Shown: positions 1-31,409, numbered from the stretch's first letter. The stretch: 64,000 bases of DNA from Vicinamibacteria bacterium (GCA_039812725.1 JBDIBD010000001.1:3550-67549), one strand, 5' to 3'. A program made the numbers and translations. The notes: generated by a model from the sequence alone, not told the origin.

Positions 1-2040
1 GAACTGCAGATACTCGTACCAGCGCAGGCCGTGCTGAGCTGGTGTCTTGCCGAACATATTGCGCTCGGACAAGCTGGTTCGGTATGGCCAGAGAAACCGT
101 GCCAGCCCGTCCCTGGCCACTAGGGCCGGGAGCGTCCCGCTTCCCTCCTCGTATGGGAATAGGACCATCGCGTCCGGTACGACCATCCAGTCACGAACGA
201 GATCCCCAACGACCATGGGTCGCGCCGGCAGTCCGCGGATGTGAGCCAGTCGCTGGCCCAACACGAAGAAGTCGTCCTCACCCGTGATGGCCATAAACCC
301 GATCGACTCGACGTAGTCGCTGAGTCGTGCACACGCCTTTTCGTCAAGGAGGGTCTTCAGCTCTGCCGCGCCACCGCCACCAAGACTCCATGGGTGCTTC
401 TCTAGGGCAGCACGGGCAACATCGGTGACGCTCACGTAGGCATTGGCGGAGTGTGGTTGGTCCAGCTGGCCGAGAATCGAGCTCCAGACCCGCCCGCATC
501 TAGGATCTTCAGGCGTCGCCGGTTCACCCTTAATCCCCATGACCGCTCGAATTGTCATGCTCTGTGGCCGCTGGTGCCGGCCGAAGATGATCACGGTCGG
601 AGTACCGTGGCCCGGGATGTAGGCTCCTGATGTGTCGATGACGTGCGTGAGGTCCCAGCGTGGGATGTACTCCTCGATTAGCTTCCTGCCGAACTCGCGC
701 TTCATGAAGCTGTTCGAGGTGATCATTCCGACAAACCCAGCCTGGTCACCGGGGGAATTGAGGCCATCGCCCATGGCAAGGGCCAACTCAAAGAAGCGCT
801 CCATGAAGGGAACAGCAAGGGAGTACTTCATGTGGCAGGATCCATACCGGTCTCGATACGCCTCGCTCTGGGCGCGGTCCTTTGCCACGATATATGGTGG
901 GTTACCGACGACGGCGTGATACTGGCGACTGAGCAGGCGGCCGACCGCCTCACCGTCCTCGCTGGCGTAGAAGTGCTCCAGACGGTCCTCGCCAATCAGC
1001 TTCCTCTGGACGCCAGGCTCGGCCCGACGCGAGGTGCCAATTTGCCAGCGTGTGCCGTGCAGGAGCGAGTCTCCGGTCGCCAGCTGGATACGGAAGGCTG
1101 GCGCGTCCTTGAGCCGCTCGGTTCCCGACGCACGCAACGCCGCCACAAGGAGTCGGAACCGCGCGATGGCGACCGCGAAAGGGTTCAGGTCTACACCGCA
1201 CACGGCGTCAAGCACCCGCTGAGCTAGTTCTCGGGAGTTTGTTCCGGGCTCGTGCTTTGCCCAGAGATCGAGCAAACGAACAAACGCACCCAGCAGGAAG
1301 TGCCCCGACCCACAGGTCGGGTCGATGAGCCGCACCTCCCGCCACCCGAACGCCTCGATAGCTGGGGTCAGCGTCCGATCGAGGATGAACTCCTCGACGA
1401 ACTCGGGCGTCTGCAGGAGGGCGTACTTCTTCCGCGCTGCCTCGGACAGGTCCTGGTACAGGTCCCCCAGGAACCGGGTGTTCCACTCCGGGTCCGTGAA
1501 GTCATGGACCAGCTCCCCGCTCGACGGCTCGATCCGCTGCCAGAAGCCCATCAGGGCCCCAGCCCCGTCGCCAGTCGGGCCCAGCCGCCAGAGGGGGTTG
1601 TGCGCCTTGTCGTACAGCGCCCCGCCGGCCGGGAGCGCGGCCACCTGCTCGAACACGTCCAGCAGGTACTCGCGGTCGGTCTCGCTGGGGTGCTTCTGGA
1701 AGTACACCGTGCGCCGGTCCGAGGCCAGTTGCCGGCGCGCGCCCGGACCGGACAGGTACGGTGCCTCGGCCGCGTCCCGGGGATGGGCGATGAGGCCGTT
1801 GTCCTCCAGGAACCGCACGAACACGCAGCCCAGGATCCAGTGCACGGCCGACTGGGTGATGAGGTCGTCGCGCCACTCCTCGTAGGCCTGGGCCGTGCGC
1901 GAGCGCTGCTTGGCCTGGGCGAACTCGGCCCGCAGGGGCTGGTCGACCTCGGACTGGCTCTCACACCGGCCGCGCATGTCGTCCTCGAGCAAGCGAAGCA
2001 GGGGGGTGAGGTCTTCGAGGAGCCGGGCGGCGTCGATCAT
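1..2040 (-). CDS. pglX: BREX type 2 PglX N6-adenine DNA methyltransferase, partial (C-terminus lies beyond window start)
   Basis: Manual translation of minus strand from ATG at 2038-2040 gives MIDAARLLEDL... with DPTCGSGHFL (SAM-binding) and VVGNPPYI (NPPY catalytic) motifs; RBS GAGGA 7 nt upstream; directly downstream of pglW. Absent from ORF track because no stop in window. Confidence 0.8.
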   Translation of the reverse strand, partial: MIDAARLLEDLTPLLRLLEDDMRGRCESQSEVDQPLRAEFAQAKQRSRTAQAYEEWRDDLITQSAVHWILGCVFVRFLEDNGLIAHPRDAAEAPYLSGPGARRQLASDRRTVYFQKHPSETDREYLLDVFEQVAALPAGGALYDKAHNPLWRLGPTGDGAGALMGFWQRIEPSSGELVHDFTDPEWNTRFLGDLYQDLSEAARKKYALLQTPEFVEEFILDRTLTPAIEAFGWREVRLIDPTCGSGHFLLGAFVRLLDLWAKHEPGTNSRELAQRVLDAVCGVDLNPFAVAIARFRLLVAALRASGTERLKDAPAFRIQLATGDSLLHGTRWQIGTSRRAEPGVQRKLIGEDRLEHFYASEDGEAVGRLLSRQYHAVVGNPPYIVAKDRAQSEAYRDRYGSCHMKYSLAVPFMERFFELALAMGDGLNSPGDQAGFVGMITSNSFMKREFGRKLIEEYIPRWDLTHVIDTSGAYIPGHGTPTVIIFGRHQRPQSMTIRAVMGIKGEPATPEDPRCGRVWSSILGQLDQPHSANAYVSVTDVARAALEKHPWSLGGGGAAELKTLLDEKACARLSDYVESIGFMAITGEDDFFVLGQRLAHIRGLPARPMVVGDLVRDWMVVPDAMVLFPYEEGSGTLPALVARDGLARFLWPYRTSLSERNMFGKTPAQHGLRWYEYLQF

Positions 2041-2047
2041 GGTTTCC

Positions 2048-5000
2048 TCAGGCGGCCGGGGGCGCCCCGGCGCGGTGGACGCTGTGCAGCCATCCGTCGG
2101 GGATGCGGGCGCACTCGCCTGTGGTCAGGACGGGAATGGCTTTGCCGTCCAGGACCGGCAGGGCCTGCTGGCCGTCCGAAGCCAGCAGGACCCAGACGGT
2201 GGGTACGCGGCCGGCGTGGCCAGCCACGTCGCGTAGGCGCGTCAACAGGCCGACCTGGTCATAGCGCGCCAGGAGGCTGGCGCGGACCAGGAGGGTGGGC
2301 TGCTGGGCCGCGGCCAGGTCTTGTTCGATGGGCCCCACGGCGCGGGCGACGAGCAGCATGAGGTTGCGCCACTCGGCGCTGGCGGCCCCGGCGGCATCGG
2401 CCCGCCGGACGACGTCCCACTCGGCGCCGGCCTCGGCCGCGGTCTGGCGCATCTGCTCGATCAGGCGCTCCTCCAGGCTGTGGCGCTGCACCGGGAAGTC
2501 GGCCAGGAGTTGCTTCTCGGCCTGGCGGAGGTGTCGCGGCTCGACGGTGAGGGCCAGGAAGCCGCCGCGCTTGAGCGAGTGCTGCAGGCGCTCGTGGAAC
2601 TGGCGCGCCTCGGCGGCCTCGGGGTTGGGCTGGCCGGGCGGTCCCACGGGCCCGATGGGCGTGAGAAGGGTCGGCGTGAAGCTGACGCTGTGGAAGTCCC
2701 TGAGCGGAGTTCGATAGGCGCCCTGTCCGCCGAGCGCGGCGGGGTTCCACGTCAGTCCCAGGCCGGCGTCGCGCAGCAGCCCGTCGAGATTGGGCCGGGC
2801 CGGCAGGGGCTGGGCCTCGGGATAGCGGCTGCGCACGCGCTCCGCCAGCTCTTCGACGGCGAGCTGCGGCACCAGCAGGGCCTGCTGGGCGAGCTTGAGG
2901 GCCCGCAGGGCGTCCATCTGGCGCGGGTAGATCTCCAGGCGGCTGGAGAGCGCGGCCTTGCTCGAGGCGGCCACGGCCAGGGGCGCCAGGCGCGACTGGC
3001 TGAGGGGCGTCACGCCCGCGGGCGTCTTGAGCGCTTCCAGCGACTCGAGCACCCGCGCCGGGGAGGCCAGGGGCTCCAGTGCTGCCAGCCGATCGGCAAC
3101 CTCCCCGAGCCGCCCGGCGTAGTCGGCCAGGTCGGGGCTGGACGCCACCAGGACGACGTCACCTGAGCGGCTGAGGCCGAAGCGGGGCGTCTCCTGGCTC
3201 TGCTCGGCCTCCACCACGGCCCGGGCGACGGCCGAGGCCACCTGGGAGCGCCGCGGCTCGGCCTCGGCCGATCCGCGGACGGTCAGGATGGCGGCCACCA
3301 GCTCTGCGGCGCTGACCACGCCGCCCTGGGAGTCGATGAACTGCGCGATCTCGTCCCCTAGGCTGGAGAGCGCCGGCTGGCGCGCCCACCGGATTCGGGC
3401 CTTGGCGATGATCTGCCCCACCCGGGCGCGGGTGACACTCAGGCGACGGGCCACGTCGGTCTGGCTGGTCCAACTGCCCCGGGGCTTGCGGCTCTCGTCG
3501 AGGCCCAGGAGGGCCTGCAGGCCGCGGGTCTCGGAGGTGTCGGCCCCGCGGCGCGGCTTGGGGACGAGCTTGCCCACGATGAGGTCCAGGCTCTGGACGT
3601 TCGCGGGCAGGCAGTCCTCGTCCTCCGTCGCCGGAGCGCTGGGGGCGCCCGTGCGCGGGTGGTCGGGGAAGCGCGCCGCCAGTTGTGTGATGGCGTCGGC
3701 CAGCTCGCGGCGGGTCTTATGGCCCACCCCGCGCATGTGATAGATGGCCGAGCTGGGCACCGAGAGCAGGCCGCTCACGGTGGTGACGTTCACGCGCTCG
3801 AGGGCGTTGAGGGCCCGGGTCCCGAGGCCCAGGATGGACAGGGGCGTGTCGAGCCGGGCCTGGGCCAGGGCCTCGGGGCTGATGGCCGGCCAGGCCTCCC
3901 CCTCCACGGTCGGCTGGGGCCGGCGCACGCTGGCCGTGAACACCTGCTGCCAGGCCCGCAGCATCTCCTCCGCATTGCCGAAGCGTTGCTGCCAGTCGCG
4001 CCGCAGGGCGCGCTGGAAGAAGACCAGCAGCCCGTCGCGCAGATCCGGGTCGAAGCGCTCGGCGTCGAGCGCGGCCTCGTCGTCGATGACCGCGGGGTCG
4101 CTGTGGCCGTCGCCCCAGCGCGGCAGGGTGCCCGTGGCCATCTCGTAGAGGGTCATGGCCGCGGCGAAGCGCTCGGCGTGGAGGTCCCAACGCGCCGGCC
4201 GGCGCAGGGACAGGAACGGGTCGAGGTATGGCACGGTGCCGGCCCGGATGTTCTCGGCGGGCGTGCGCGAGAGGGAGAAGTCGAACAGGACCAGATGCAG
4301 GCGGTCGCCCCGGCCGACGGGGCTGATGCCGATGTTGTCGGGCTTCACGTCGCGGTGCGGGATGCCCTTCTGCTCGAGCCAGTCGATGGTCTGCAGCAGG
4401 TCCTCGCCAAAGCGCTGGAGGAGGTCCACGTGCAGGGGGCCCTCGCGGCGGAGGCGCTGGCCCAGGGTCTCGTCGCCAGCCTTGTCGAGCACCAGCGCCA
4501 GCCGGCCGCCGATCTCCTCGAGGCCCCGATAGCCACAGACGTGCTGGTGTGTCAGGGCGTTGAGCGCCTCGGCCTCAGCCCGCAAGCGGTCGTGCTGCTC
4601 GGGGTTCAGGGCCACCTTCAGGACGCACTCGCGTCCTTCCTCTTCGACGAGGAGCGCCACCGCGGTGGCCCCCTTGCCCAGGCGCCTCTTCACCTTGAAG
4701 CGGCCGAGCTGGTCGCCAGCCTTGGCCTCGAGCGGGTCGAGCTGCTCGACGGCCTCGGGACGCGTGAGCTCCTCCTCGAACTGGTCGAGCCCTCCGAGGA
4801 ACTCGGCCACGGATTCGAGGCGGCTGGTGACCGACGGGCTGGTGCTGGTGAGCACCAGGAGCTGGAGCGCCTCGGCCGCACCGTCGAGCACGGAGGCCAG
4901 GCGCAGGCCGTCGCCTTCGCGCAGCTTCTCCACCAGCTCGACCGCGGACTTGGCCGGCGGCGTGCCGGAAAAGAGCAGGTGCGCGAGAGCCCCCAGCGAG

Positions 5001-6229
5001 AAGACGTCGAGCGCCTCGGGGTCGGCGTTCAGGTCAGTGAAGGCCTCGGGGGCCATGTATACGCGGGCCGCGTCCTCGACCAGCTCGCCCAGGTGGGTGG
5101 TGCCGGTGGAGCTGCGGCCCGTGGCCTCGCGCCGCGCCGACTGCCAGTTGAAGACCTGCACGCGAGGCTGCGGCGCCTCCGGGTCGACGACCAGGATGCT
5201 CTGGGGCGAGAGAGAGCGGTGATACAGCTTGTGCCGGTGGGCGTGCTGGATCGCCTCGGCCACCTGGCGCAGGAGCTGGAGGCGCACGTCGAGGCTCAGC
5301 CGCTCGCCCCGCTCGCGGAGGAAGTGGTCGAGCCGCAGCGAGCCCGGCGAGTGCTCGAACACCAGAGCGGGGCCGCGCTCGTGGTCGCGATAGTCGACGG
5401 CCTTGAGGATCCCGGCGTGCTGGATGCCCTCGAGGATCTGGAACTCGCGCTGGGCCGCCCGGCGGAGCTGCTCACGGCTGCTGGCGCTCTCGGCCCGGGC
5501 CAGCGGATAGAGACGGATGCGGCGGCGGACCTTGGGGAGCGAGACGTGGCCCGCCTCCCAGTCCTGGAAGCCCTGCCCCTCCCCGAGCAGCTTCTCGAGG
5601 ACGTAGTCCCCCACCCGGCGCGAGGCCTCGTGGGGTCGGATGCCGGCCTGGTCCATGGCCTGGTGAAGCAGGCGGGCCACGGTGCGGTCGATCATGCCTC
5701 TCCCGAGCGGGGCGCCCTCGGTCAGCACGGAGACGATCCCCGGCGGGTCGCCGGGCTGGGGCTGCGGCCGATCCCGCAGGTGGACGGACAGGCGCGTCCT
5801 GGCGTCGAGCTGGCAGCGCAGGCCCGCGGCCGAGAGGAACACCCGGGCCTCGACGAACGGCGGCCGCCCCCGGCTGAAGGCCCGCATCCCCCGCAGGAGG
5901 GAGGCGAGCCGCTTGGCCTTGCTGTTGGCGAGAAACGTCGGGTTGTCCAGGGTGATCCGGCGTCCCTCGTGGGTCCAGGTCCACGTTCCGGCGTCGCCCT
6001 CGACGACGCCCGGCCGGCTCTTGATCTCGATCAGGAACAGCCCGCGGGGGGTCAGGACCAGCAGGTCCACTTCGTTGATCGAGCCGTCCTCGCCGATGAA
6101 CTCGAAGTTCGACCACGCCAGGTAGGGGTCGCGGTCGGGTAGCCGCTCGCGCACGAACTCAAGCGCCTCCCGCTCCCAGGGGTACTGGGACGGCGTGACT
6201 TCCTTCCAGCGGGGTGAGTCGGCCTTCAT
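2048..6229 (-). CDS. pglW: PglW-like BREX type 2 protein: N-terminal NERD domain, pseudokinase-like domain, Ser/Thr protein kinase domain (HRDVKPDNI), C-terminal RNAP alpha-CTD-like HhH region
   Basis: 1393-aa ORF; NERD-like FEFIGEDGSINEVDLLVLTPRGLFLIEIK; kinase catalytic loop HRDVKPDN; GxGxxA glycine loop LGKGATAVA; HhH LGTRALNALERVNVTTVSGL; gene order pglW-pglX as in Streptomyces Pgl. Confidence 0.85.
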   Translation of the reverse strand: MKADSPRWKEVTPSQYPWEREALEFVRERLPDRDPYLAWSNFEFIGEDGSINEVDLLVLTPRGLFLIEIKSRPGVVEGDAGTWTWTHEGRRITLDNPTFLANSKAKRLASLLRGMRAFSRGRPPFVEARVFLSAAGLRCQLDARTRLSVHLRDRPQPQPGDPPGIVSVLTEGAPLGRGMIDRTVARLLHQAMDQAGIRPHEASRRVGDYVLEKLLGEGQGFQDWEAGHVSLPKVRRRIRLYPLARAESASSREQLRRAAQREFQILEGIQHAGILKAVDYRDHERGPALVFEHSPGSLRLDHFLRERGERLSLDVRLQLLRQVAEAIQHAHRHKLYHRSLSPQSILVVDPEAPQPRVQVFNWQSARREATGRSSTGTTHLGELVEDAARVYMAPEAFTDLNADPEALDVFSLGALAHLLFSGTPPAKSAVELVEKLREGDGLRLASVLDGAAEALQLLVLTSTSPSVTSRLESVAEFLGGLDQFEEELTRPEAVEQLDPLEAKAGDQLGRFKVKRRLGKGATAVALLVEEEGRECVLKVALNPEQHDRLRAEAEALNALTHQHVCGYRGLEEIGGRLALVLDKAGDETLGQRLRREGPLHVDLLQRFGEDLLQTIDWLEQKGIPHRDVKPDNIGISPVGRGDRLHLVLFDFSLSRTPAENIRAGTVPYLDPFLSLRRPARWDLHAERFAAAMTLYEMATGTLPRWGDGHSDPAVIDDEAALDAERFDPDLRDGLLVFFQRALRRDWQQRFGNAEEMLRAWQQVFTASVRRPQPTVEGEAWPAISPEALAQARLDTPLSILGLGTRALNALERVNVTTVSGLLSVPSSAIYHMRGVGHKTRRELADAITQLAARFPDHPRTGAPSAPATEDEDCLPANVQSLDLIVGKLVPKPRRGADTSETRGLQALLGLDESRKPRGSWTSQTDVARRLSVTRARVGQIIAKARIRWARQPALSSLGDEIAQFIDSQGGVVSAAELVAAILTVRGSAEAEPRRSQVASAVARAVVEAEQSQETPRFGLSRSGDVVLVASSPDLADYAGRLGEVADRLAALEPLASPARVLESLEALKTPAGVTPLSQSRLAPLAVAASSKAALSSRLEIYPRQMDALRALKLAQQALLVPQLAVEELAERVRSRYPEAQPLPARPNLDGLLRDAGLGLTWNPAALGGQGAYRTPLRDFHSVSFTPTLLTPIGPVGPPGQPNPEAAEARQFHERLQHSLKRGGFLALTVEPRHLRQAEKQLLADFPVQRHSLEERLIEQMRQTAAEAGAEWDVVRRADAAGAASAEWRNLMLLVARAVGPIEQDLAAAQQPTLLVRASLLARYDQVGLLTRLRDVAGHAGRVPTVWVLLASDGQQALPVLDGKAIPVLTTGECARIPDGWLHSVHRAGAPPAA

Positions 6230-6305
6230 TCCCTGGCCTGCCTCCGGGATGCAGTTCCTGACGGATGGTCGTGGGGGTGATTTTACGGGGGCGGAGGCCT
6301 CGGTG

Positions 6306-6875
6306 CTATCGGCCCGCCCGGGCCAGGTCGCGATGCCAGTTGAGGAAGCGGGGCCCCGTGACGACCCTGGCGCGGATGGCCTCGTCGAACAGGCCGGCGA
6401 GCCCGTCCCAGGGCTCGACCGATGCCGGAAGAAGCGTCCACCGGAGCTCGTCCAGAAGCCAGTGCCCCTTGATGTCCTGGCACCGGTAGCAGGCCGTCAC
6501 CAGGTTGGCCGCGTCGCCCGACCCGCCTCTTGACCGTGGCGTGATGTGGTCGGCGGAGGCCGTCAGGTCCCAGACCAGCGGGTGCGTCGAGTCCCTCTTC
6601 CAGTTGGGGTGGATCGGAATCAAGTCGGGGAAACGGGCGCTCAACAAGGGGAGGACCGGCGGGAAGAGAGTCCTCCGGCCGCAGTAGCGGCAGGTGAAGT
6701 TGTCGCGCCGGAAGACCTCGATCTGGAGGCGCCTGGGCGCCGGCCTGGCGGCCGGCAGTTCCTCTGGCCGCCAAGCTACCGGCGTCAAGGCCCGCCGACC
6801 AGCTGCATCGTCGCCTCGCAAGAGGGCCTTCAGCGCGGCCTCGACGCTGCCCAACGACTCGCTCGAGCCGGTCAT
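6306..6875 (-). CDS. HNH endonuclease family protein
   Basis: 189 aa; CRYCGRRT...ADHITPRSRGG...NLVTACYRCQ matches HNH/zinc-finger nuclease layout; 76 bp upstream of pglW on same strand. Confidence 0.7.
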   Translation of the reverse strand: MTGSSESLGSVEAALKALLRGDDAAGRRALTPVAWRPEELPAARPAPRRLQIEVFRRDNFTCRYCGRRTLFPPVLPLLSARFPDLIPIHPNWKRDSTHPLVWDLTASADHITPRSRGGSGDAANLVTACYRCQDIKGHWLLDELRWTLLPASVEPWDGLAGLFDEAIRARVVTGPRFLNWHRDLARAGR

Positions 6876-7090
6876 GTCTGCGGCCCCCCGCGCACGCCAA
6901 ACGGCAGAACCGTCAGTTTCGTCAGTGCAGCCGCGCCCATGCGTGACCTGCCCCTCCCTTCCTCTCCTATGGCCACTTCAGACCCTTCGGTCTCAAACAT
7001 ACAATGCAGCCGGTCCCGCGTAGTCGTGGCCCGGACGGGACGAGCGTCGCGCAGTCACCCTGCGTGGCCAAGCTGGAGGGAGACCCGATC

Positions 7091-9283
7091 ATGGAAACAC
7101 TGGTGCGCACCCCCCAGACCGTCTTCATGCAGCCCCAGCGGCTCATGGTCCCTCTGTTCCAGCGGCCCTACGTCTGGAACGAGGACGATCAGTGGGAGCC
7201 GCTCTGGAACGACGTGGTTCGTGTGGCCAACAGGCTGCTGGCCGGGCCGCACACCCGACTTCAGTCGCACTTTCTTGGTGCCGTGGTGCTGCAGCAGGTT
7301 CAGCGGCAGATCGGCCTGATGCAGGAACGCACCATCATCGACGGGCAGCAGCGGCTGACCACGCTGCAGCTCTTCATGGATGCCCTCCACGCCGAGCTGC
7401 TCGCCGCGGGCCAACAGCCTCCTGCCCTGCGGCTCGAGCCGCTCGTCACCAATGCCCAAGCCTTCTGCGCCAAGCCCGAGGACCGCTTCAAAGTCTGGCC
7501 GACGAACCGGGATCGGCCGGCCTTCAACGCCGTCATGAGCGCCACGCCGCCGGTGGATCACGACGCCCTCGGCCACTCCGGTGCCCGGATGGTCGAGGCG
7601 CATCGGTTCTTCAGCGAGCAAGTCCGTGCTTGGCTCTCCTCCGCCGGTCCTGACGGAGTGGAGGCGCGAGCGCTGGCGATCGAGACCGTCGTGCGCGACC
7701 ACCTCCAGATGGTCGTGATCGACCTGGGCGTCGATGAGAACGCCCAGGAGATCTTCGAGACGCTGAACGCGCGAGGGGCACGCCTCACCGCGGCCGACCT
7801 CATCAAGAATTTCGTCTTCCAGCGGCTCCTCGAGGCCGGCGCGGATGTCGAGCGCGCCTACCAGCGCGACTGGCAGGACTTCGAGACCGGGTTCTGGGAG
7901 ACCGAGATCAGCGTCGGCCGGGTCAAGGAGCCGCGCTCGTCGATCTTCCTCAACCACTGGCTGATCGCCCGTACCGGCGAGGAGATCGTCGCGCGCGAGG
8001 TCTTCACCCGCTTCAAGAGCTTCGCGTCGTTCGATGCCGGCCTCCCCATGGAGGCCCTGCTCCAGCAGGTCCAGCGGGCGGCAACGGTCTATCGTCGCTT
8101 CGTCACGAGCGCTTCCACCCTGACCGGCCCGGTGGACCGCCTCGGGCTCTTCGGCTACCGCACGGGCATCCTGGAGAGCGAGGTCATCAAGCCGCTCGTG
8201 ATGCACCTCCTCGATCCCGAGGAGGCCCCAGTCCCGGAGGAACAGCTCTACGGCGCTCTCGACGCCGTGGAGGCCTGGATGGTGCGACGGATGCTCGTTC
8301 GCGCTACGACCAAGAACTACAACCAGGTCGTCGCCGAGCTCATCAGGGAGCTGCGCGCCTCTGCCCGGACGCAAGCGGGGACCGTGGTGGTGCGGTATCT
8401 GGCGCGCCAGACGAGCGCGAGCCGCTACTGGCCGGACGACGAGGAGGTGCTGGGCGAGCTGAGGACGCTCTTGGCGTATCGGCGCCTCGGACGCGGCCGC
8501 CTCCGCATGGTCCTCGAGGCCGTCGAGGACCACCTGCGTGGCTGGAGGGACGGCGGCGTCGGACTGGGCGGCGAGCGAGTCGCTCGCGGCCAGTACGCCA
8601 TCGAGCACGTCATGCCTCGGAAGTGGGCTGCACACTGGCCAGCCGCCGAGGGGTTCCGGAGCGAGGCCGACCGCGACCAGCTCATCCACACGATCGGAAA
8701 CCTCACACTTCTGACGGGCAAGCTGAACAGCAAGGTCTCGAACGGCCCATGGCTTGGCCCTGACGGGAAACGGCAGGGGCTCGAGGGGCACGATGTCCTC
8801 CTGCTCAACCGCGAGCTTCTGAGAGCCAATCGGGACGCATGGACGGATGCGGCGATCCGTGGGCGGTCGGAGGAACTGGCGAAGCTCATCCTCGCGATCT
8901 GGCCTGCGCCCGCCGGGCATCGTTCCGGTTTCGCGGAGAAGGCCAAGACCCACTCGCGGCACAAGATCCACCTCGCCGACCTCATCAGTGCCGGACTGCT
9001 CGAGGCCGGCATGCCCCTCTATGCACGCCGCAGGCAGTTCGCCGACCGCCTGATCACCCTTCTCCCTGATGGGCGGGTCGACGTCGAAGGCACGGCGTAT
9101 GCCAAGCCGTCCACGGCGGCGACAGCGCTCACTGGTAGGCCGACGAACGGCGTGTGGTTCTTCCTCGTCGATCGCGTCTCCCGCCGCTCCTTGCGGGACG
9201 TGCTCCGCGACTACGTCGACTCACGCGCGGTCGACGCCGAGGATGACGAGGGTGAGGAAGACGGCGACGACGAGGAGGCCTAG
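7091..9283 (+). CDS. GmrSD/BrxU-like type IV restriction endonuclease (N-terminal DUF262 ParB-like NTPase, C-terminal DUF1524 His-Me finger nuclease), acidic C-terminal tail
   Basis: DGQQRLTT motif (DUF262), C-terminal AIEHVMPRKW...IGNLTLLTGKLNSKVSNGPW (DUF1524); ATG at 7091 preceded by GGAGGGAG RBS; track ORF starts earlier at 7004 but lacks RBS. Confidence 0.85.
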   Translation: METLVRTPQTVFMQPQRLMVPLFQRPYVWNEDDQWEPLWNDVVRVANRLLAGPHTRLQSHFLGAVVLQQVQRQIGLMQERTIIDGQQRLTTLQLFMDALHAELLAAGQQPPALRLEPLVTNAQAFCAKPEDRFKVWPTNRDRPAFNAVMSATPPVDHDALGHSGARMVEAHRFFSEQVRAWLSSAGPDGVEARALAIETVVRDHLQMVVIDLGVDENAQEIFETLNARGARLTAADLIKNFVFQRLLEAGADVERAYQRDWQDFETGFWETEISVGRVKEPRSSIFLNHWLIARTGEEIVAREVFTRFKSFASFDAGLPMEALLQQVQRAATVYRRFVTSASTLTGPVDRLGLFGYRTGILESEVIKPLVMHLLDPEEAPVPEEQLYGALDAVEAWMVRRMLVRATTKNYNQVVAELIRELRASARTQAGTVVVRYLARQTSASRYWPDDEEVLGELRTLLAYRRLGRGRLRMVLEAVEDHLRGWRDGGVGLGGERVARGQYAIEHVMPRKWAAHWPAAEGFRSEADRDQLIHTIGNLTLLTGKLNSKVSNGPWLGPDGKRQGLEGHDVLLLNRELLRANRDAWTDAAIRGRSEELAKLILAIWPAPAGHRSGFAEKAKTHSRHKIHLADLISAGLLEAGMPLYARRRQFADRLITLLPDGRVDVEGTAYAKPSTAATALTGRPTNGVWFFLVDRVSRRSLRDVLRDYVDSRAVDAEDDEGEEDGDDEEA

Positions 9284-9370
9284 CAGGGGTCGGCTCCCAT
9301 CTGTGCCAGCCCATGACCCTCACGGGCTCTCGGCTGGGTACTTCAACCTCGGCAGGGCGGAGTGACTCGC

Positions 9371-9880
9371 CTACTCGTGGGTTGCGTGTCCGGGTGGCGG
9401 GAGGGGGATGGTGACATCCCGGCCGATTGTCTTCAGGACGTACCGATAGTCACCGTCGTCAGTTTGGTCGTTCCAACTGATCGGCAGGGCGTCGGGATAG
9501 GTGACGTGGAGCATGTGCAGGTACCAACCTGCGTAGGCCCAGTCTTGGCCATAGCCCAACTGGGCAATCCTCGGGAAGCGCTCGAGGATGACGTCGGCGA
9601 GCTCACTCGGATGAGCGTGAGAGACGTCCTGCCAACCCCAGAATGTCGACCCGGATGCGCTGCTGTACCGCGCGATGGCATCGTCCGGCACGTCCCTCGC
9701 CCACCGCGCCCCGTGCTCCTTGCTGATGTGGCAAGCGGGCAGGATGCTGCAACGCCAAGTTCCGAGGTTGTAGAGAGAGGGCACGATGCGGACACGCTGA
9801 AAGCCCCGCACATGGAGCTCTCCCACGGCCCGGAGGAGCTTCCGGCAACGCCTGATTCCATTCTGTGCGGCCGTAGGCAC
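9371..9880 (-). CDS. hypothetical protein
   Basis: GTG start at 9880 with AGGAGG RBS 4 nt upstream; high GC3; no recognised domain. Confidence 0.45.
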   Translation of the reverse strand: MPTAAQNGIRRCRKLLRAVGELHVRGFQRVRIVPSLYNLGTWRCSILPACHISKEHGARWARDVPDDAIARYSSASGSTFWGWQDVSHAHPSELADVILERFPRIAQLGYGQDWAYAGWYLHMLHVTYPDALPISWNDQTDDGDYRYVLKTIGRDVTIPLPPPGHATHE

Positions 9881-9985
9881 CCCCCTCCTTGCGCGCGAAT
9901 CCGGTCGGCTAGCGACCGAGCCTGAGCGCGTGCAGGCCACTCAGGAGCGCCGTGGGGCGCCTGCGCCGAGACGCCGCTCGCCGCC

Positions 9986-11134
9986 TCACCCCCGAATGAT
10001 CCGCGCCATGCACTCCGCCAGCTTCTCCGGCGTGCACACCAGGATGTCCATCCCGACCTTCCGAAGCCGCTTGGCAGTCGTCCGGTTGTAGGCCGGCCGG
10101 GCGTCGTACCCCAGCGCCCCGAGCCCGATCATCCGCACTCCCGCTTGGGCCAAATCCTCGGTCTGCCGCACCAAGTCGTCCTCGCTCCCCCCCTCGTAGA
10201 AGTCCGTAATGAGAACGATGATGGTACGGGACGGCTGCCGCACGAGTTGGGCGCCGTACCGGAGCGCCTGGGCGATGTCCGTCCCACCGCCGAGCTGGAC
10301 CTTCATCAGCACGTCCACCGGCTGACCCACCTGGTCCGACAGGTCCACCACTTGGGTGTCGAAGAGGAACAGCGACGTCCGGACCGCCGGCAGCTCGTAG
10401 AAGATCGAGGCCATCACGGCGGAGAACACAGCCGAGTCGAGCATCGAGCCGGACTGGTCGACGGCGATGATCACGTGCCAGGGCCGCCGGCGCCGCTCAG
10501 CCGCGAAGTAGTACACCCGCTCCACCAGCAGGCGCTCGCTCTCCCGGTTGTAGTGCTTGAGGTTCCGACGCAGGGTGGTCTTCAGGTCCAGGTTCCGGTA
10601 CACCTTGCGGGGCGAATGCCGATCGCGCCGCAGTGCCCCCGTGATGGCCGACTCCACAGCCACCTGCATACGCCGCTTTAGCTCCTCCACCACCCGCTCG
10701 ATGATCTTGCGGGCCAGCACACGTGTGTTCTCGTTGAGCAGTTCCTTGTGCGTGAGAAGGGTCTTGACCAACTCGACGTTCGGCTCGACCTTCTCGAGTA
10801 GCTCTGGCTGGTCGAGCAACGCCCGGATCCCCCGCCGCTTGACGAGCTCGCGCTGGAGGACCTCCTGGGCCGAGTGCGGGAACAGTTCGGCGACCTCGTC
10901 GATCCAGGTCGGGACGCTCAGCATCGACTCACCGCGGCCGCCCTTCCGGTCCCCTGACCCCTGAGAGCCCTGCTCGCCGCTCCCTTCGAAGAGAAACCCG
11001 ACGAGCGCCTCGATGCGCTGCAGCCGCGAGTCGTTCCCGACTGTCAGGCCCTCGGCCTCGGCCTCCCGGCCGAGGACCAGCCGCCACCGAGCGACGGTGC
11101 GCGGGTCCGCCGGAACGCCGCTCACAGGTCCCAC
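9986..11134 (-). CDS. VWA domain-containing protein (MoxR-associated, CoxE-like)
   Basis: 382 aa; N-terminal RWRLVLG motif, VWA MIDAS-like IIAVDQSGSM ... GGGTDI; start overlaps upstream DUF5682 gene by 13 nt. Confidence 0.8.
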   Translation of the reverse strand: MGPVSGVPADPRTVARWRLVLGREAEAEGLTVGNDSRLQRIEALVGFLFEGSGEQGSQGSGDRKGGRGESMLSVPTWIDEVAELFPHSAQEVLQRELVKRRGIRALLDQPELLEKVEPNVELVKTLLTHKELLNENTRVLARKIIERVVEELKRRMQVAVESAITGALRRDRHSPRKVYRNLDLKTTLRRNLKHYNRESERLLVERVYYFAAERRRRPWHVIIAVDQSGSMLDSAVFSAVMASIFYELPAVRTSLFLFDTQVVDLSDQVGQPVDVLMKVQLGGGTDIAQALRYGAQLVRQPSRTIIVLITDFYEGGSEDDLVRQTEDLAQAGVRMIGLGALGYDARPAYNRTTAKRLRKVGMDILVCTPEKLAECMARIIRG

Positions 11135-13566
11135 CCCGCCAGGATCCGGCCCACCTGCTCGTCGATGTGCGCCATCAGAGCCCCGGCGGCCACGGAGGTC
11201 CCGAGGCGGATTAGCTCGTCGCTGGTCTTTAGCCCGTGACGGCGGGCCACGCGGTCGGCCAGGGTCAGCCGCTGCCGTTCGTGCAGGCGCTCGAAGGCCC
11301 CGCGCAGCCGCGGCAGCATGACGAGGAAGGAGTCGTGCTCAGCCACCCGCAGCAACTCGTCGACAGCCTCCACGAGGTGTTCCGCCCCGAGGAGCAGCGA
11401 GGTGCGGGAGGTGGCCAACGCTCCGTCGAGGAACTCCCCTGCGACGGTCATCCGGTCGGCTGGCTCCTGGGCGAAGGCGGCCAGGTGCCCGGCCAGGGTT
11501 TCGGCCGAAATCACCCGCAGCTCGGCCAGCAGGCCTAGAAAGGCTCCCCTCAGGAAGGGCACCGTGCTCGCGCCTGCCGCGCTCTCGACGTGCTGGATGA
11601 GCACGTCGCGGTCGAGCCGCTCCTGCTCCCCCAACAGCGCCTCCGCCACCACCCGAAGGGCCTCGATCACGGCTTCCTGTTCGTCCGCGGGGACGTTGGC
11701 GGCTTCCGGAAGCGCGAAGCAGGCGCGGTCAAAGCACTGCTCAACCAGCTCGTCGAGCGCCCCCTCGCGGAACTGCCGATAGGAGAGGTGCCGCCTCAGG
11801 AGCAGCAAGTGGTGGAGGGCCTCGGCCAACGAGACGAAGCGGCCGTCGACGCCGATGGCGGCACGGCAGGCCCGCTCCAGCTCGTCGGCCAGGGTTGGCA
11901 GCTCCATGTCGAGCGCCGCCCGCAGGCGCCCCGCGATGGCCCCCGCCTTGCCCGCGTGCTGGGCCAGTTCCTCCCGCAGCCGGGCCAACGCCGCAGCCTC
12001 CACTGTGTCGCCCAGCAGGGCGCGCTCGGTCAGCTCCGTCTCGACGTCGGGGCTCCAGAGCAGCCGCCACACTTCGCGGAAGATTGTGCCAGAGTCGAGG
12101 TTCCCTCCCCCGCCCTCCAGGAGTTGGACGAGGGGCACGCCCAGGACCCGCAGGCGGTGCAGGAAGGCGGAGCGGCGCCGCCCCAACTCCTCGCGCTTGT
12201 CGAGCCTCAGGGTCAGGCGCTTCTCTTGATCGACCACCTGGCCCAACTCCAGCGCGTCGAGCTCCCCATAGAAGTCCGAGAGGAGCGGAAGCCGGCCGAG
12301 GGCCGGCGTGACCGCGCCGATGCGCGAGCCGATGTCGACGGCGTCGATGGCGGTGCGCAGCCCGCGTCCATGCCGTTCCGGGCTGCCCTTGCAGCAGCAG
12401 GTCAGGATCGCGTCGTGAACGTCGTCGAGCACGGGGTGCGGCCGGCGACGCAGGGACGCCAGCAGCCTCGCATGCTGGGCGATGCTGATGGCGTCCGCCG
12501 AGGAGACCGTCTCGCCCTCCTTCCGCGCCCGCTTGAGCACCGCCACGACGTGCCGCGCGAGCAGCTCGTCGCGGTCTCCGGCCAAGCCGGCCTCAAACAG
12601 CGACTGATAGAACCGCGGGGCGCGGTTCCCGGCCCCGTATCCAGAAAGCTCCGAGACCCGGAAGTAGGAATACGGCACCACGGAGGTGCGGACCGTCCCC
12701 GGCGGGGCGATGGGCGGCGGGCTCGGGTCCGCGCGGTCGAGGAGAAGGTGGAAGCCCCCGCAAACTACCAGGGCCTCGCCCGGGGTGAGCTCGTGCCGCT
12801 CCAGCGCTGCTTGGATGGCGCGCCACATGAACCGCTCGCGCTCGAGGGTCCCGTCGGCGAGCAGGCGCTCCGGCACGGTCGTGGCGCGCGCCGCCGCGCA
12901 GAAGGTCAGCAGGTCGCGACGGAAGGCCTCGCGGTCTGTGGCGTGCGGACCGAACTCGAACAGGCAGTCCCAGGCCTCGTCCCAGTTCCGGTACCCGCCC
13001 GCCCGCGCCAGGGCCTGATAGAAGCCACTATCCAAGAAGACCGCATCCGGCCGGGAGTCCGGCGGAGTTTGGCTTCCGGGGCCCGGGCCGTCGTCCTTCG
13101 GCCGTGGGCGGATCAGGGCCCAGTGCGGCAGGTCGATGAACTCGACCTGGGCCCCGATCGCGGCGGCCGTCTTCATGGCCACGTACTCGGGCGAGTAGGC
13201 CAGCAGCGGGTACCAGGCCGGGAACCGTGCCGGGATGGACTCGCTGGGGCTGGCGATGCCGGCCAGTCCGAGGACGTTCTGGTCGTCCCGGTAAGACGAG
13301 TAGAGCGCCACCGGTGGGCGCGTGCGCTTGTCCACGACGTGAGGAACGAGGTCGGTGGCCTCAGAAGGCCCCTCGATCAGGACCAGGCGCGGCCGCCGCT
13401 CGCGAATGGCGGCCTCGACGTGCCAGGCCACCGCCGGGGAGTGGTGGCGCACAGGGAACCAGTAGATCTCGTCGGCCAGCACCCGCGCGACGACATCCTG
13501 CACGGCCTCCAGATCGAGGCCGGGAACCGGAGGCAGCTCGGGAAGGCCGGCCACGGCCTGTGTCAT
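11122..13566 (-). CDS. DUF5682 family protein
   Basis: 814 aa; typical DUF5682 N-terminus (IYWFPVRHHSPA); positioned between MoxR ATPase and VWA gene as in conserved actinobacterial clusters. Confidence 0.75.
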   Translation of the reverse strand: MTQAVAGLPELPPVPGLDLEAVQDVVARVLADEIYWFPVRHHSPAVAWHVEAAIRERRPRLVLIEGPSEATDLVPHVVDKRTRPPVALYSSYRDDQNVLGLAGIASPSESIPARFPAWYPLLAYSPEYVAMKTAAAIGAQVEFIDLPHWALIRPRPKDDGPGPGSQTPPDSRPDAVFLDSGFYQALARAGGYRNWDEAWDCLFEFGPHATDREAFRRDLLTFCAAARATTVPERLLADGTLERERFMWRAIQAALERHELTPGEALVVCGGFHLLLDRADPSPPPIAPPGTVRTSVVPYSYFRVSELSGYGAGNRAPRFYQSLFEAGLAGDRDELLARHVVAVLKRARKEGETVSSADAISIAQHARLLASLRRRPHPVLDDVHDAILTCCCKGSPERHGRGLRTAIDAVDIGSRIGAVTPALGRLPLLSDFYGELDALELGQVVDQEKRLTLRLDKREELGRRRSAFLHRLRVLGVPLVQLLEGGGGNLDSGTIFREVWRLLWSPDVETELTERALLGDTVEAAALARLREELAQHAGKAGAIAGRLRAALDMELPTLADELERACRAAIGVDGRFVSLAEALHHLLLLRRHLSYRQFREGALDELVEQCFDRACFALPEAANVPADEQEAVIEALRVVAEALLGEQERLDRDVLIQHVESAAGASTVPFLRGAFLGLLAELRVISAETLAGHLAAFAQEPADRMTVAGEFLDGALATSRTSLLLGAEHLVEAVDELLRVAEHDSFLVMLPRLRGAFERLHERQRLTLADRVARRHGLKTSDELIRLGTSVAAGALMAHIDEQVGRILAGWDL

Positions 13567-13576
13567 CCCCGGGCGC

Positions 13577-14746
13577 TCACTTGCTGGGCAGCACTTCCTG
13601 GAGTCCGTCGAAGAAGGCGCTCCAGTCGGCGTCCTTGGCGGCCCGCTTCTTGGCCACCAACGTCGCGTACTCCTTCAGGGCCGCCAGGTCGCCCACGTCT
13701 TCCTTGACGACCGAGCCCACGATGTTCCGCGCGATGTCGCCCCCGCCAACCTTGTGCTTGCCGAAGAACGAGGCTCTCAAGGCCGACTCGACCGCCACGC
13801 CGATGGCCTCCGCAGTCGACAGCGTGGTGGAGGGTTGCTTGAGGCTGGTGCCGTCCGCGCTCCGACCTTCCCGAATCTCCCGGAAGGCGGTGGCAATCAG
13901 CTGGGCCATCTTGGGCGGCACCTCGAGCGGCACCCGATAACGCGACAGGAGCTCGGCCGATCGCTGCCGGACGATCTCGACCTCGGTCTTGGCGTCCTCG
14001 ACCACGGGTATGTGGATGTAGTTGAAGCGGCGCTTCAGTGCGGCCGAGAGCTCGTTCACCCCTTGGTCGCGGGTGTTGGCCGTGGCGATCAGGTTGAAGC
14101 CCGGGCGGGCCCAGACCATGTTGGCCTCGGGCAACTCGGGCACGGCGATGGCCTTGTCGGAGAGGATCGAGACCAGCGCGTCCTGGACGTCGGGGACGCA
14201 GCGGGTGATCTCCTCGAAGCGCAGCAGGCTGCCCGTGCGCATCGCGACCATGGTCGGAGCCGGGATCAGATTCTGGGGCGTCGGGCCCTCGGCGATCACC
14301 CGGGCGATGTTCCAGGAGTACTTGATCTGCTCCTCCGTGGTACCTGCCGTGCCCTGGATCGTGAGGGTCGAGGTGCCGCTGATGGCGGCCGCCAGGTGCT
14401 CCGAGAGCCAGCTCTTGCCGGTGCCAGGATCGCCCAGCAGCAGCAGGGCCCGTTCGGAGGCCAGCGTCACGATGGCGCGCTCGACGATGGACCGGTCGCC
14501 GTAGAACTTGGTGGTGATCGCCACCGACCTCTTGGCACCGTCGATCTTGGCCTCCACCGTAGCGCCGCCCAGGATGTACGCCAGAACCGCGCGTGGGGAC
14601 AGGCGCCAGCTCTCCGGGCGGTCGTCCTTGTCGGTGGCAGCCAGGGCCTCGAGCTCCTCCCGGTAGCGAACCTCGGCAGGGTCTCGCAGCCGCTCCCCGG
14701 TCGAGGGGCTCTCCGCTGCAGGCTGCGACTTCTCCTTCGAGGCCAT
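13577..14746 (-). CDS. MoxR-like AAA+ ATPase
   Basis: 389 aa; Walker A GDPGTGKS, Walker B-like, AAA_5/MoxR layout; strong RBS GAAGGAG before ATG at 14746. Confidence 0.9.
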   Translation of the reverse strand: MASKEKSQPAAESPSTGERLRDPAEVRYREELEALAATDKDDRPESWRLSPRAVLAYILGGATVEAKIDGAKRSVAITTKFYGDRSIVERAIVTLASERALLLLGDPGTGKSWLSEHLAAAISGTSTLTIQGTAGTTEEQIKYSWNIARVIAEGPTPQNLIPAPTMVAMRTGSLLRFEEITRCVPDVQDALVSILSDKAIAVPELPEANMVWARPGFNLIATANTRDQGVNELSAALKRRFNYIHIPVVEDAKTEVEIVRQRSAELLSRYRVPLEVPPKMAQLIATAFREIREGRSADGTSLKQPSTTLSTAEAIGVAVESALRASFFGKHKVGGGDIARNIVGSVVKEDVGDLAALKEYATLVAKKRAAKDADWSAFFDGLQEVLPSK

Positions 14747-14756
14747 GAGGACTCCT

Positions 14757-15866
14757 TCAGGTGAACTTGAGCGCCTTCACGAGTGCGGCGGCGTCGAACG
14801 TCTCCTTGCTGAGCAGGAGCGCCTCCGGCCCCCGGGCCGTGAAGAGAGTCAGGGGCTGCAACATGAACCGGCACATCTCGTAGTGCACGATGCCGAAAAG
14901 GCGGGCGTCCTGGGGCTGCTTCCACGAGTCCAATGCGCCTCGCAACAGGGCGTCGTCGGGCCCCTGCCCGGCCAGCACGTGGCAGGTGAGCGTACCCGCG
15001 ACCAGGGGGACCCGCTGTAGCTGCTCGCGGGGGACATCCTCCGGCTCCCCAGTGCGGAAACCGGTCAGGACGACTTCCTCCTGGAGCTCCACCTCGAGGT
15101 CGAAGGGGCCCGGCGTGCAGCCCGTGATTCGGTCGAGGGCCCCGCGAGCGTCCCAGGTCAGGAACCTGTCCCAGTCCTCGAAGGGCTCGGCCCGCGAGGC
15201 GACCTTCGACTCTCGGGTCAGGCTGAGGCGTCCCTCGTCCGAGACGACCGCGGCGGTCACGCGGTTGACCTGGCCCGGGAGAAAGGCGGCAGCCTTGAAG
15301 CCCTGAGGCTGCGGAAGGTGCAGGAACGCGTCCGGGGGCACATCGGAGCCGCCCCGCAGGGGGAACACGATCGACCACGACAACGGCGCGCCGGCGGCCA
15401 AGCCGTCGACCGCCTCGAGCGCCCGCAGGCGAAAGTCGAAGGCCGCGAAGGCCCCCCGCACGACGCGCTTGCCGACGCCGAGCGTCACCACCTCGAGATT
15501 CGGGAGGGGGCGGCTACCACCGAGCCCCGCCAGCAGGCGCCAGCGGGGCTCGTCCTCGGCCTCGAGCGCCTTGCGCAGGCCGCGACTGAGCATCCAGGCC
15601 CTGTTCAGGAAGAAGCCGTACCGCCGGCGGGAGAACCCCGTGTCGTTCTTGGCGAAGCGCCCCAGCTCCTCAGTGGCAACCCGCAGAGTGAAGCCCAGCC
15701 TCAGGAGCCGCATGCGCGATGCCGCCTCGAACGAGACCGCGAGGGTGCGGCGCGTGGCCTCAGACGCGGCCGCGAGGCCGGTCAGGAGGAGATCCTCGAC
15801 GGCTTGCTCGAGGTCTCGGAGCAGCCGCTGGAGGCCCTCACGCTCGGCAGCCGGAGGCAGGCTCAT
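14757..15866 (-). CDS. hypothetical protein (operon member, no recognised domain)
   Basis: 369 aa; start overlaps (ATGA) the upstream small ORF; stop 10 nt before MoxR gene; GC3-biased codons. Confidence 0.6.
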   Translation of the reverse strand: MSLPPAAEREGLQRLLRDLEQAVEDLLLTGLAAASEATRRTLAVSFEAASRMRLLRLGFTLRVATEELGRFAKNDTGFSRRRYGFFLNRAWMLSRGLRKALEAEDEPRWRLLAGLGGSRPLPNLEVVTLGVGKRVVRGAFAAFDFRLRALEAVDGLAAGAPLSWSIVFPLRGGSDVPPDAFLHLPQPQGFKAAAFLPGQVNRVTAAVVSDEGRLSLTRESKVASRAEPFEDWDRFLTWDARGALDRITGCTPGPFDLEVELQEEVVLTGFRTGEPEDVPREQLQRVPLVAGTLTCHVLAGQGPDDALLRGALDSWKQPQDARLFGIVHYEMCRFMLQPLTLFTARGPEALLLSKETFDAAALVKALKFT

Positions 15867-16213
15867 GCCGGTTCGCCTTCCGAATCCCCATCAGGTCCTT
15901 CGATGGCTCCGGCGAGCGTCCGCAGTTGGCCTGCCGCCACTTCCAGGGTCAGGACGCGTTCGAAGACGCGCAGGCTGGCCTGCGTCCGAGCCAGGGCCGC
16001 CGCCGCCTCCCGGCGGTCGCCCGACACGGCCTCCACGAGGGCCCCGAGCCGGCTGGCGAGGTGCGAGGCGCCGACCTGCGCCAGATCCTCCTGCACGGCC
16101 CTCAAGACGGGGAGGCGCTCGGGGCCCGAGACCCGAAGCCCGCCAACTGCCAAGTCCTCGAGCTCCGCCTGCAGCCGGCCGAGCGCATAGGTGATCTCGG
16201 CCAGCTCGGTCAC
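15863..16213 (-). CDS. small hypothetical protein (116 aa), operon member
   Basis: Start overlaps (ATGA) the stop of the BRCT-SWIM gene; helical, Ala/Leu-rich. Confidence 0.45.
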   Translation of the reverse strand: MTELAEITYALGRLQAELEDLAVGGLRVSGPERLPVLRAVQEDLAQVGASHLASRLGALVEAVSGDRREAAAALARTQASLRVFERVLTLEVAAGQLRTLAGAIEGPDGDSEGEPA

Positions 16214-17259
16214 AGGGCGTAGTAGTCCTCAGGAACCGTCTCGGTCGGGCGCCAGTCGATCTCGCCGGCCTGGGCGCTCTTGAGGCGAAGAACGAGCTCG
16301 GCGCTCGCCTGGGGCTCCTCGACCGGCGATTCCCGCGAGGCAACCTGGGCCCAGCCATGCGCCACGCGAGCGTCGAGGAGCCCCTTGCTCGCCAGCCCGA
16401 CCAGGAGCACCACAAGGTGCTTGCAGATGTCGCCCCGCATCCCCATGCACAGGCGCATGTTCCCGTCGAAGCAGCTGAAGCTCCCGTCGTCCTGCATCCA
16501 GCAAGCGTAGTACGCCTCGGGTTCGGTCTGGCTTCTGACGATCCCACCAACCGAGGAGGCGGTCGTCAGATGGTAGAGCTGCAGAGCGCCCTCTTTGAGC
16601 ATGCGGATGGCACGCTCGACCTTCTTCGGGTCGGTCAGCGTCCGCAGGTGGACTGCGAGACCGCGAGCGTCGTACCCCGATTCCCCGGGACGCCGGAGGC
16701 ATGCCATAAGGTCCAGGAACTCGTCCTCGTCTAGGACCCTCAGGGACGGGCGAGCGACCTGGAGCTCCTTCAAGCGGGCCAACTCCGCCTGCTTGCCCCT
16801 GCCCCGTCCACTGCCCACCACGGCGAAGTCGACCGCGTCGGTGGCCTCAGTGATGACCTGCCCCCCGGCGGCTACGACCATGGCCGAGGGGCTCTCAAGA
16901 TCAAGGCCGCGCGACAACCCGCCTACGAAGAGGAATGCCTTGCCGGCGATCTTGGGTCGCAGGAGAAAGAGGAAGCTCGTCGGGTCGAGCGTCTGCGGAC
17001 CTCGCCCCTCGGCTCGGAGCCGCTCGGCCTTGCGCAACGCCTCGGCCTTCCCCTTGCCAGGCTTGTTCCCTACGACCAGGAAGTCCGCATCCTCGAGCCG
17101 TGACACGAGTCGGGCGTTACGCCGCCTGAGATGCGGCTCGGGCCCTCCCTCAGGGAGGACGCTTGGCCAGTCGTCGAACCCCCACTTCCCCACCAGGAAG
17201 AACCGCTTGCCCCTGAGGTCCTCGGCGTACTCCAGCACCGGCGCACTCGACCTAGCCAT
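16210..17259 (-). CDS. SWIM zinc finger protein with BRCT-like N-terminal repeats
   Basis: 349 aa; SWIM motif CWMQDDGSFSCFDGNMRLCMGMRGDICKHLVVLL (CxC...CxH); two BRCT-like units (FFLVGKWGF..., FLFVGGLSRGL...); C-terminal AQAGEIDWRPTETVPEDYYAL shared with neighbouring paralog. Confidence 0.75.
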   Translation of the reverse strand: MARSSAPVLEYAEDLRGKRFFLVGKWGFDDWPSVLPEGGPEPHLRRRNARLVSRLEDADFLVVGNKPGKGKAEALRKAERLRAEGRGPQTLDPTSFLFLLRPKIAGKAFLFVGGLSRGLDLESPSAMVVAAGGQVITEATDAVDFAVVGSGRGRGKQAELARLKELQVARPSLRVLDEDEFLDLMACLRRPGESGYDARGLAVHLRTLTDPKKVERAIRMLKEGALQLYHLTTASSVGGIVRSQTEPEAYYACWMQDDGSFSCFDGNMRLCMGMRGDICKHLVVLLVGLASKGLLDARVAHGWAQVASRESPVEEPQASAELVLRLKSAQAGEIDWRPTETVPEDYYAL

Positions 17260-17262
17260 GGT

Positions 17263-23504: not shown

Positions 23505-23533
23505 TTCCTTTGTCACCGGAGTATGATCCACCC

Positions 23534-28389: not shown

Positions 28390-28460
28390 CTCGCCCCCCA
28401 TTTCTTCGCGAACTGGGGCGCCGGACCCTCTATCATCATTCCCAAGCCCGGGGGAACCCC

Positions 28461-31343: not shown

Positions 31344-31409
31344 CAGGAAGGGGGCCATGGCCCATGGCATCGTCGCCACCTGACGGGGACAGGGTGGGCC
31401 CGCCTCCTG

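Follow-up and report, generated by a model that had tools for sequence, protein, structure and literature searches.

The left end of the window, by which is meant the whole 64,000-nucleotide stretch of a Vicinamibacteria bacterium that was analysed (GCA_039812725.1; JBDIBD010000001.1:3550-67549), contains the beginning of a type 2 bacteriophage exclusion (BREX, or Pgl) operon, which is adjoined by genes for a type IV restriction enzyme of the GmrSD family and for a small HNH nuclease. The region very probably forms the border of a defence island that is cargo alongside a mobile-element backbone and in which three separately transcribed modules work in parallel and not as one machine. The first module would be the BREX type 2 operon, read leftwards as pglW and pglX, then pglY and pglZ, and probably brxD and brxHI, with other defence genes perhaps inserted between pglX and pglY. 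The second would be the GmrSD-family enzyme on the other strand, with a promoter-like site of its own. The third would be a solo HNH protein of 189 amino acids (aa), a third nuclease travelling as an independent passenger. Positions 1-9283 have a G+C content of about 70%, and gene picking with a codon-position filter (G+C at third positions, GC3, above 0.8) resulted in four genes there, all at the places given in a first-pass annotation of this DNA. The combination is a genuine but ordinary example, since each of the three elements has been described before, and so has their occurrence together. For those who catalogue defence islands it is a useful data point, one more stack of BREX type 2 and a type IV enzyme from an uncultured lineage of high GC content, and it leaves the understanding of these systems unchanged.

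The BREX type 2 genes and the expected rest of the operon

The identity of the operon as BREX type 2 is supported by pglW and pglX, the products of which both exceed the cut-offs of curated NCBI equivalog models. The signature gene of BREX type 2, pglW (2048-6229, minus strand), encodes a protein of 1393 aa that scored 1627 bits with the NCBIfam BREX_PglW equivalog (cut-off 990), spanning aa 7-1385, and 1608 bits with the PADLOC PglW model. Pfam domains in this protein comprise NERD, two kinase domains and an RNAP-alpha-CTD-like domain, together with a long C-terminal half, and this architecture agrees with the published one (PMC12839542). The second kinase has an intact HRDVKPDN catalytic loop at aa 625, and the first is degenerate (HRS) and thus a pseudokinase. 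The initial description of pglW as encoding a NERD and kinase protein is borne out by these domains, the catalytic loop and the equivalog score.

Directly downstream of pglW lies the 5' part of pglX (1-2040, minus strand), which covers the first 680 of about 1220 codons of the predicted BREX type 2 N6-adenine DNA methyltransferase gene. The frame is open over all 680 codons and the 3' end lies beyond window position 1. Full-length homologues of PglX have 1216-1225 aa, and the C-terminal half (the DUF7008 region) falls outside the window. The 680 aa within the window scored 905 bits with the NCBIfam BREX_2_MTaseX equivalog (cut-off 400); PglX was also matched by the PADLOC PglX model (917 bits) and by Pfam Eco57I and MmeI_Mtase. 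Motif I (DPTCGSG, aa 240) and NPPY (aa 380) were both found. With these motifs and this score, pglX is, as previously proposed, an NPPY methyltransferase gene cut by the window edge, and the methyltransferase motifs, the absence of which had been named as a sign against the proposal, are present. The BREX type 2 (Pgl, for phage growth limitation) system of Streptomyces coelicolor and its homologues have the same full PglW architecture and a PglX methyltransferase directly downstream; the window differs in that only the first two genes are visible. The order pglW-pglX was common to every related locus fetched except L077, in which pglY and pglZ come before pglX.

In BREX/Pgl systems, host DNA is methylated by PglX at the adenine of a short asymmetric motif, and the PglW/PglY/PglZ machinery blocks the replication of DNA with the wrong methylation state. 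Judged by protein family, the operon in the window would act in the same way, with PglX marking host DNA with N6-methyladenine and PglW, PglY and PglZ stopping the replication of wrongly methylated DNA.

The nearest relative of this locus is the contig JBQVBI010025029.1 (L014/L019, referred to here as L019), in which PglW is 95% identical (P0137) and the DNA about 90% identical over window positions 344-6289. In the orientation of the window, L019 carries pglY, an AIPR gene, a SIR2 gene, an OLD-TOPRIM gene, pglX and pglW, all read leftwards, followed by a 272-aa methyltransferase gene read rightwards, the HNH gene read leftwards and a GmrSD-RAMA gene read rightwards. The two PglX proteins (window 1-520 versus L019 10508-14182) are mostly 88-100% identical over aa 1-360. 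From about aa 510 (aa ~510-680) they are only 20-50% identical, whereas PglW stays at 95% throughout. This looks like a swap of the PglX target-recognition region between the window and L019. As the low identity after about aa 510 stands against a conserved N terminus, the system in the window likely recognises a different methylation motif from that of L019. The pair can be seen as a natural experiment, with nearly the same backbone, an apparently swapped PglX specificity region, a methyltransferase cassette present or absent and different cargo.

No homologue of PglY or PglZ was found within the 64-kb window. Their expected position was examined by proxy, in 12 genome loci and 62 metagenome loci that encode relatives of PglW or PglX and in which PglW, PglX, PglY and PglZ were mapped by tblastn. 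Of the related loci, 32 extend 9 kb or more beyond the start of pglX, and in all 32 pglY lies downstream of pglX on the same strand. L001 and L002 are colinear for pglW-pglX-pglY-pglZ, and PADLOC confirmed BrxC/PglY and PglZ downstream of pglX in both; pglZ was found after pglY in these two and in many metagenome loci. Since relatives carry pglY downstream of pglX, the placement of pglY and pglZ beyond window position 1 is well supported by proxy. The BrxD ATPase and the BrxHI helicase have been reported in about 90% of type 2 loci (PMC12839542).

The genes pglY and pglZ had been predicted to lie just outside the window. The location beyond position 1 is upheld by the proxy loci, the nearest relative included, and it is the word "just" that may not hold, as the distance is possibly several kb. 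Among 38 loci, pglY comes directly after pglX in 17, and in 16 others an insert of no less than 1 kb, and at most 8 kb, stands between the two. In L019, pglY begins 4.8 kb after pglX, and the insert (14198-18976) encodes OLD ABC-TOPRIM, SIR2_2 and AIPR (Abi-like) proteins; this locus ends inside pglY. Because 16 of the 38 loci carry such inserts and the nearest relative has three defence genes at this place, pglY may begin only after the remaining pglX sequence (about 1.6 kb) and a further several kb of embedded cargo.

More generally, the pglX-pglY junction of BREX type 2 was observed to be an insertion hot spot, with 1-8 kb inserted (L019, L029, L037, L039, L042, L051, L056 and L070). A separate observation concerns PglW copies in Vicinamibacterales. 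Some of these genomes have two PglW loci, namely OZ244051.1 (L001 and L004) and OZ251506.1 (L008 and L011). Among L004, L006, L008 and L011, some copies match PglW in part (aa 1-769, with an additional short C-terminal segment in L011), and some have no pglX within 10 kb. These partial copies suggest decaying or rearranged BREX type 2 systems.

The GmrSD-family enzyme and its start codon

The gene for the type IV restriction enzyme of the GmrSD family (7091-9283, plus strand) is transcribed divergently from the HNH gene. Its product consists of a DUF262/GmrSD_N nucleoside triphosphatase domain (Pfam GmrSD_N, 5.6e-35), a DUF1524/GmrSD_C His-Me nuclease domain (GmrSD_C, 2.1e-23) and a C-terminal RAMA domain (9.8e-11), the last of which was absent from the first-pass annotation. 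The PADLOC models Orf5, mREase_IV and HEC-06 also matched this protein. The motifs of GmrSD_N are intact (IIDGQQRLTTL, with DGQQR at aa 113, and PLFQRPYVW upstream), as are those of GmrSD_C (IEHVMP, with EH at aa 534; GNLTLL, with NLTLL at 566; and NSKVSN).

The longest open reading frame of this gene starts at ATG 7004 and encodes 759 aa; from ATG 7091 it encodes 730 aa. The intergenic region is accordingly 128 bp with the first ATG or 215 bp (6876-7090) with the start at 7091. The start is likely ATG 7091, and several features of the sequence favour it. A Shine-Dalgarno sequence, GGAGGGAG, lies just upstream of ATG 7091, and a sigma-70-like promoter (6977-7005, plus strand; one site, with 0.0 expected in shuffled sequence) overlaps ATG 7004. 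The divergent region is conserved in L019, where a 1-nt indel between the equivalents of 7004 and 7091 breaks the frame from ATG 7004 and where the GmrSD gene was called from the equivalent of 7091. A point on the other side is that the gene caller took 7004 for the exact same GmrSD protein on another contig (a 2.9-kb Logan contig). Given the start at 7091, the proposal of a DUF262-DUF1524 protein diverging from a region of ~215 bp holds.

By analogy with Eco94GmrSD and BrxU, the binding and hydrolysis of nucleoside triphosphate by DUF262 would license the DUF1524 His-Me nuclease to cut DNA with modified bases such as hmC, glc-hmC or 5mC, and RAMA would serve as a DNA-binding or modification-sensing module. 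The enzyme would thereby cover phages that evade BREX through hypermodification, as BrxU does with BREX type 1 (PMC8565348). It would act independently of the operon, since it lies on the opposite strand and has its own promoter-like site and Shine-Dalgarno sequence.

This enzyme had also been called BrxU-like. The comparison stands only as far as membership of the GmrSD family and the concept of complementary protection go. In the pEFER island of Escherichia fergusonii, a BREX system likewise adjoins a fused DUF262 and DUF1524 type IV enzyme, BrxU (PMC8565348), and in both cases complementary cover of unmodified and modified phage DNA is expected. BrxU and BREX have been shown to form independent, complementary layers of defence, and GmrSD enzymes have been described as working as single polypeptides with a nuclease domain of their own (PMC8565348). 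A closer likeness to BrxU does not hold. A phmmer search of PDB sequences, among which the BrxU structure is presumed to be, gave no match to BrxU at E<=10, and the best matches were other DUF262 proteins (20yv and 9jfl) and SspE. The motifs of BrxU are DGQQR and DHIYP (PMC8565348), compared with IIDGQQRLTTL and IEHVMP in the window, and the window enzyme has an extra C-terminal RAMA domain. The BREX system of pEFER is type 1 and that of the window type 2. Furthermore, BrxU sits between brxC and pglX, whereas the GmrSD gene of the window lies outside the operon on the opposite strand and is divergent from it.

The pairing of GmrSD with BREX type 2 recurs independently. A scan for the DGQQR motif followed by Pfam found embedded GmrSD_N genes in three other BREX type 2 lineages. 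One lies between pglW and pglX (L025, 8243-9292), two stand in tandem at the same place in another locus, only one of them with GmrSD_C (L030, 5485-9734), and one lies between pglX and pglY (L034/L035; L034 13929-15845, minus strand). Such "embedded" defence genes have been described (bioRxiv 10.1101/2024.01.29.577857), and GmrSD, stand-alone HNH and OLD-TOPRIM nucleases have been catalogued as auxiliary or back-up nucleases of BREX loci, with GmrSD named the most notable of the HNH type (PMC12839542, NAR 2026). As in these descriptions, the BREX core genes of the window have a GmrSD gene and a stand-alone HNH gene as immediate neighbours, and the nearest relative has OLD-TOPRIM, SIR2 and AIPR genes between pglX and pglY. 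The window differs in that its two extra nucleases flank the operon instead of lying inside it.

The HNH nuclease and the rival explanations

The putative stand-alone HNH (beta-beta-alpha-Me) nuclease gene (6306-6875, minus strand) encodes 189 aa with matches to Pfam HNH_5 and HNH. A spacer of 76 bp from the HNH stop to the pglW start (6230-6305), which was aligned with L019, separates it from pglW, exactly the distance and strand reported before. An HNH fold is predicted for the protein. It has two CxxC pairs, D108-H109 and N123, and at position 132, which by our own reading of the motif we take to be an HNH metal ligand, it has Gln where most relatives have Asn after the second CxxC. This Gln is followed by Asp (CQD) in three BREX-linked members (the window protein, P0001 and P0002), and the others have Asn (mostly CNS, CNH or CNT). 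In comparison with other two-CxxC HNH nucleases, namely the HNH domains of Cas9 and IscB, EcoKMcrA, the Geobacter Gme HNH protein (4H9D) and the phage GVE2 HNH protein, the window protein has helical extensions at both ends (aa 1-56 and aa 140-189, with W145 and W155-D-G-L conserved) with no match in solved structures or Pfam.

When 1.84 billion cluster representatives were searched with a profile, 295 of them, mostly full-length, matched at E<=1e-30 and 3139 at E<=1e-10. The family, counted as 295 or more clusters at 50% identity, is thus moderately widespread, and it is unnamed. An impression that it was tiny, drawn from 16 proteins in a word-indexed search, was withdrawn after the profile search. 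The genomic contexts of its members are diverse. A homologue 47% identical to the window protein follows mcrB-mcrC (an Mrr_N-McrB/McrC pair) in L083 (646-4297) and L084, with the same orientation and a gap of 105 bp. Others lie after a HEPN-MNT pair, with a Fic gene close by (L085), beside DUF2924 and serine recombinase genes (L016), among HEAT-repeat and kinase genes (L017), beside an HTH_17 protein gene (L087) and, in one further locus, near an acetyltransferase gene; in L086 there is nothing notable nearby. A tblastx comparison of the flanks of six independent loci found no meaningful shared neighbour.

Is the HNH protein, then, a part of either defence system beside it? The first-pass annotation had regarded it as non-canonical for Pgl and as a possible added effector. 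The homologue contexts agree with the first half of this statement in that the family is not tied to BREX, and "effector" remains a guess. In its explicit form, the effector proposal would make the HNH protein a recruited auxiliary or back-up nuclease of BREX type 2, co-transcribed with pglW and acting on Pgl-marked DNA. The gene does lie on the pglW strand across a gap of only 76 bp, in which no terminator-like site was found; its linkage to pglW is retained in L019, L015 and L020; and tight linkage to BREX loci has been reported for stand-alone HNH genes as auxiliary nucleases (PMC12839542). However, a convergent methyltransferase gene splits the HNH gene from pglW in all three of these relatives, which leaves no common transcript there. 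In L019 it is part of an extra cassette of ~1 kb (5333-6151, minus strand) encoding a 272-aa class-I methyltransferase with generic S-adenosylmethionine-dependent domains (Methyltransf_31/25/12), not those of DNA-methyltransferase families, and convergent with the HNH gene. The sequence immediately upstream of pglW is kept in L019, with this insert next to it where the window has 76 bp. Because of the intervening convergent gene, the HNH gene and pglW cannot form one transcription unit in L019. Neither this HNH nor this GmrSD was found in any of 25 other BREX type 2 loci that include 3.5 kb or more of sequence upstream of pglW, HNH homologues occur away from BREX, and in the BREX-linked clade Gln132 replaces the Asn that we presume to be a metal ligand. 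The effector proposal is, on balance, unlikely. The HNH gene could instead belong with type IV restriction. At the level of the family, it is decidedly unlikely that these proteins are dedicated accessory nucleases of type IV restriction systems (GmrSD here, mcrBC in an unrelated contig), although if this were true the window would hold a three-way BREX type 2, GmrSD and HNH functional unit and not mere neighbours. Likewise, it is very unlikely that the HNH protein is a partner of the GmrSD enzyme, perhaps as a second nuclease or a regulator, in a module expressed from the shared divergent region. Both proposals draw on the homologue directly after mcrB-mcrC and on the divergence of the HNH and GmrSD genes in the window, and the second also on the conservation in L019 of the 215-bp region from which the two diverge. 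Against this, only two independent type IV associations were counted among eight contexts, no neighbour is conserved by tblastx, and GmrSD enzymes, as noted above, act as single polypeptides that already include a nuclease domain.

A different kind of alternative is that the BREX type 2 system is a remnant, with pglW and pglX lacking a functional pglY and pglZ, or with pglX disrupted just past the edge. The window stops inside pglX and holds neither pglY nor pglZ in its 64 kb, and degenerate loci exist, with truncated PglW and no pglX (L008 and L011) or with pglW and no pglX within 10 kb (L006). This alternative is nevertheless highly improbable, as the frames are intact over 680 and 1393 codons, codon bias is strong (GC3 0.81 and 0.94), the catalytic motifs are intact, and pglY was found downstream in every sufficiently long related locus. 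Some points do weigh against three parallel modules. As pglY and pglZ are unseen for this genome, a truncation or rearrangement of the operon may lie shortly past position 1. Read-through from the HNH gene into pglW may produce a joint transcript here, unlike in L019, given the short spacer. The linkage of HNH, GmrSD and pglW is also common to the window and L019, and since the two are close (about 90% at the nucleotide level) it carries little weight either way. Taken with the separation of the two genes by a methyltransferase gene in L019, the 25 other BREX type 2 loci and the unrelated contexts of its homologues, the HNH protein is most likely an independent passenger of the island and not a Pgl subunit, in keeping with three modules that would be transcribed separately.

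The island setting and neighbouring genes

Next to the GmrSD gene, on its right, is a tightly packed operon of seven genes (9986-18936, minus strand) with stops and starts that overlap or abut. Its products are VWA_CoxE, DUF5682 (814 aa) and AAA_5/MoxR ATPase proteins, a pentapeptide-repeat protein and three proteins without a family match. PADLOC gave a single weak match, of mad8 to the AAA_5 protein (E 1.1e-4), and a literature search turned up no mention of DUF5682. This operon may be an uncharacterised MoxR-vWA conflict system. It is absent from the corresponding position in L019.

Beyond this operon, the mobile-element backbone includes an AlpA-like gene (about 19985-20182, plus strand), a DUF2274-like gene (20140-20445, plus strand) and a gene for a TrwC relaxase with an AAA_30 helicase domain (20667-23663, minus strand). 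The pair of AlpA-like and DUF2274-like genes is common to the window and L019, and the cargo between the GmrSD gene and this pair amounts to 10.7 kb in the window versus about 1.8 kb in L019. The differing cargo, the TrwC relaxase and the accessory gene content therefore point to variable cargo beside a mobile-element backbone. No integrase was found in the window, nor were tRNAs (tRNA scan) or Rfam RNAs (at the gathering threshold).

Two open reading frames near the genes described above had no family match. The frame at 6283-6900 (minus strand) was rejected as a gene, and the frame at 9362-9925 (plus strand) failed the GC3 filter.

Further conflict-type genes were observed in the rest of the window, at 28386-34941, 39898-41079, 43872-45263 and 54914-61204. 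They encode a Sel1-repeat/trypsin protein (985 aa), a DUF6036 nucleotidyltransferase with an HVO_A0114-like partner, and Schlafen/AlbA_2, DUF4172-Fic and AAA_14-DUF4143 proteins, together with a 2096-aa SpvB/TcdB/FG-GAP/RHS (RHS/Tc) toxin.

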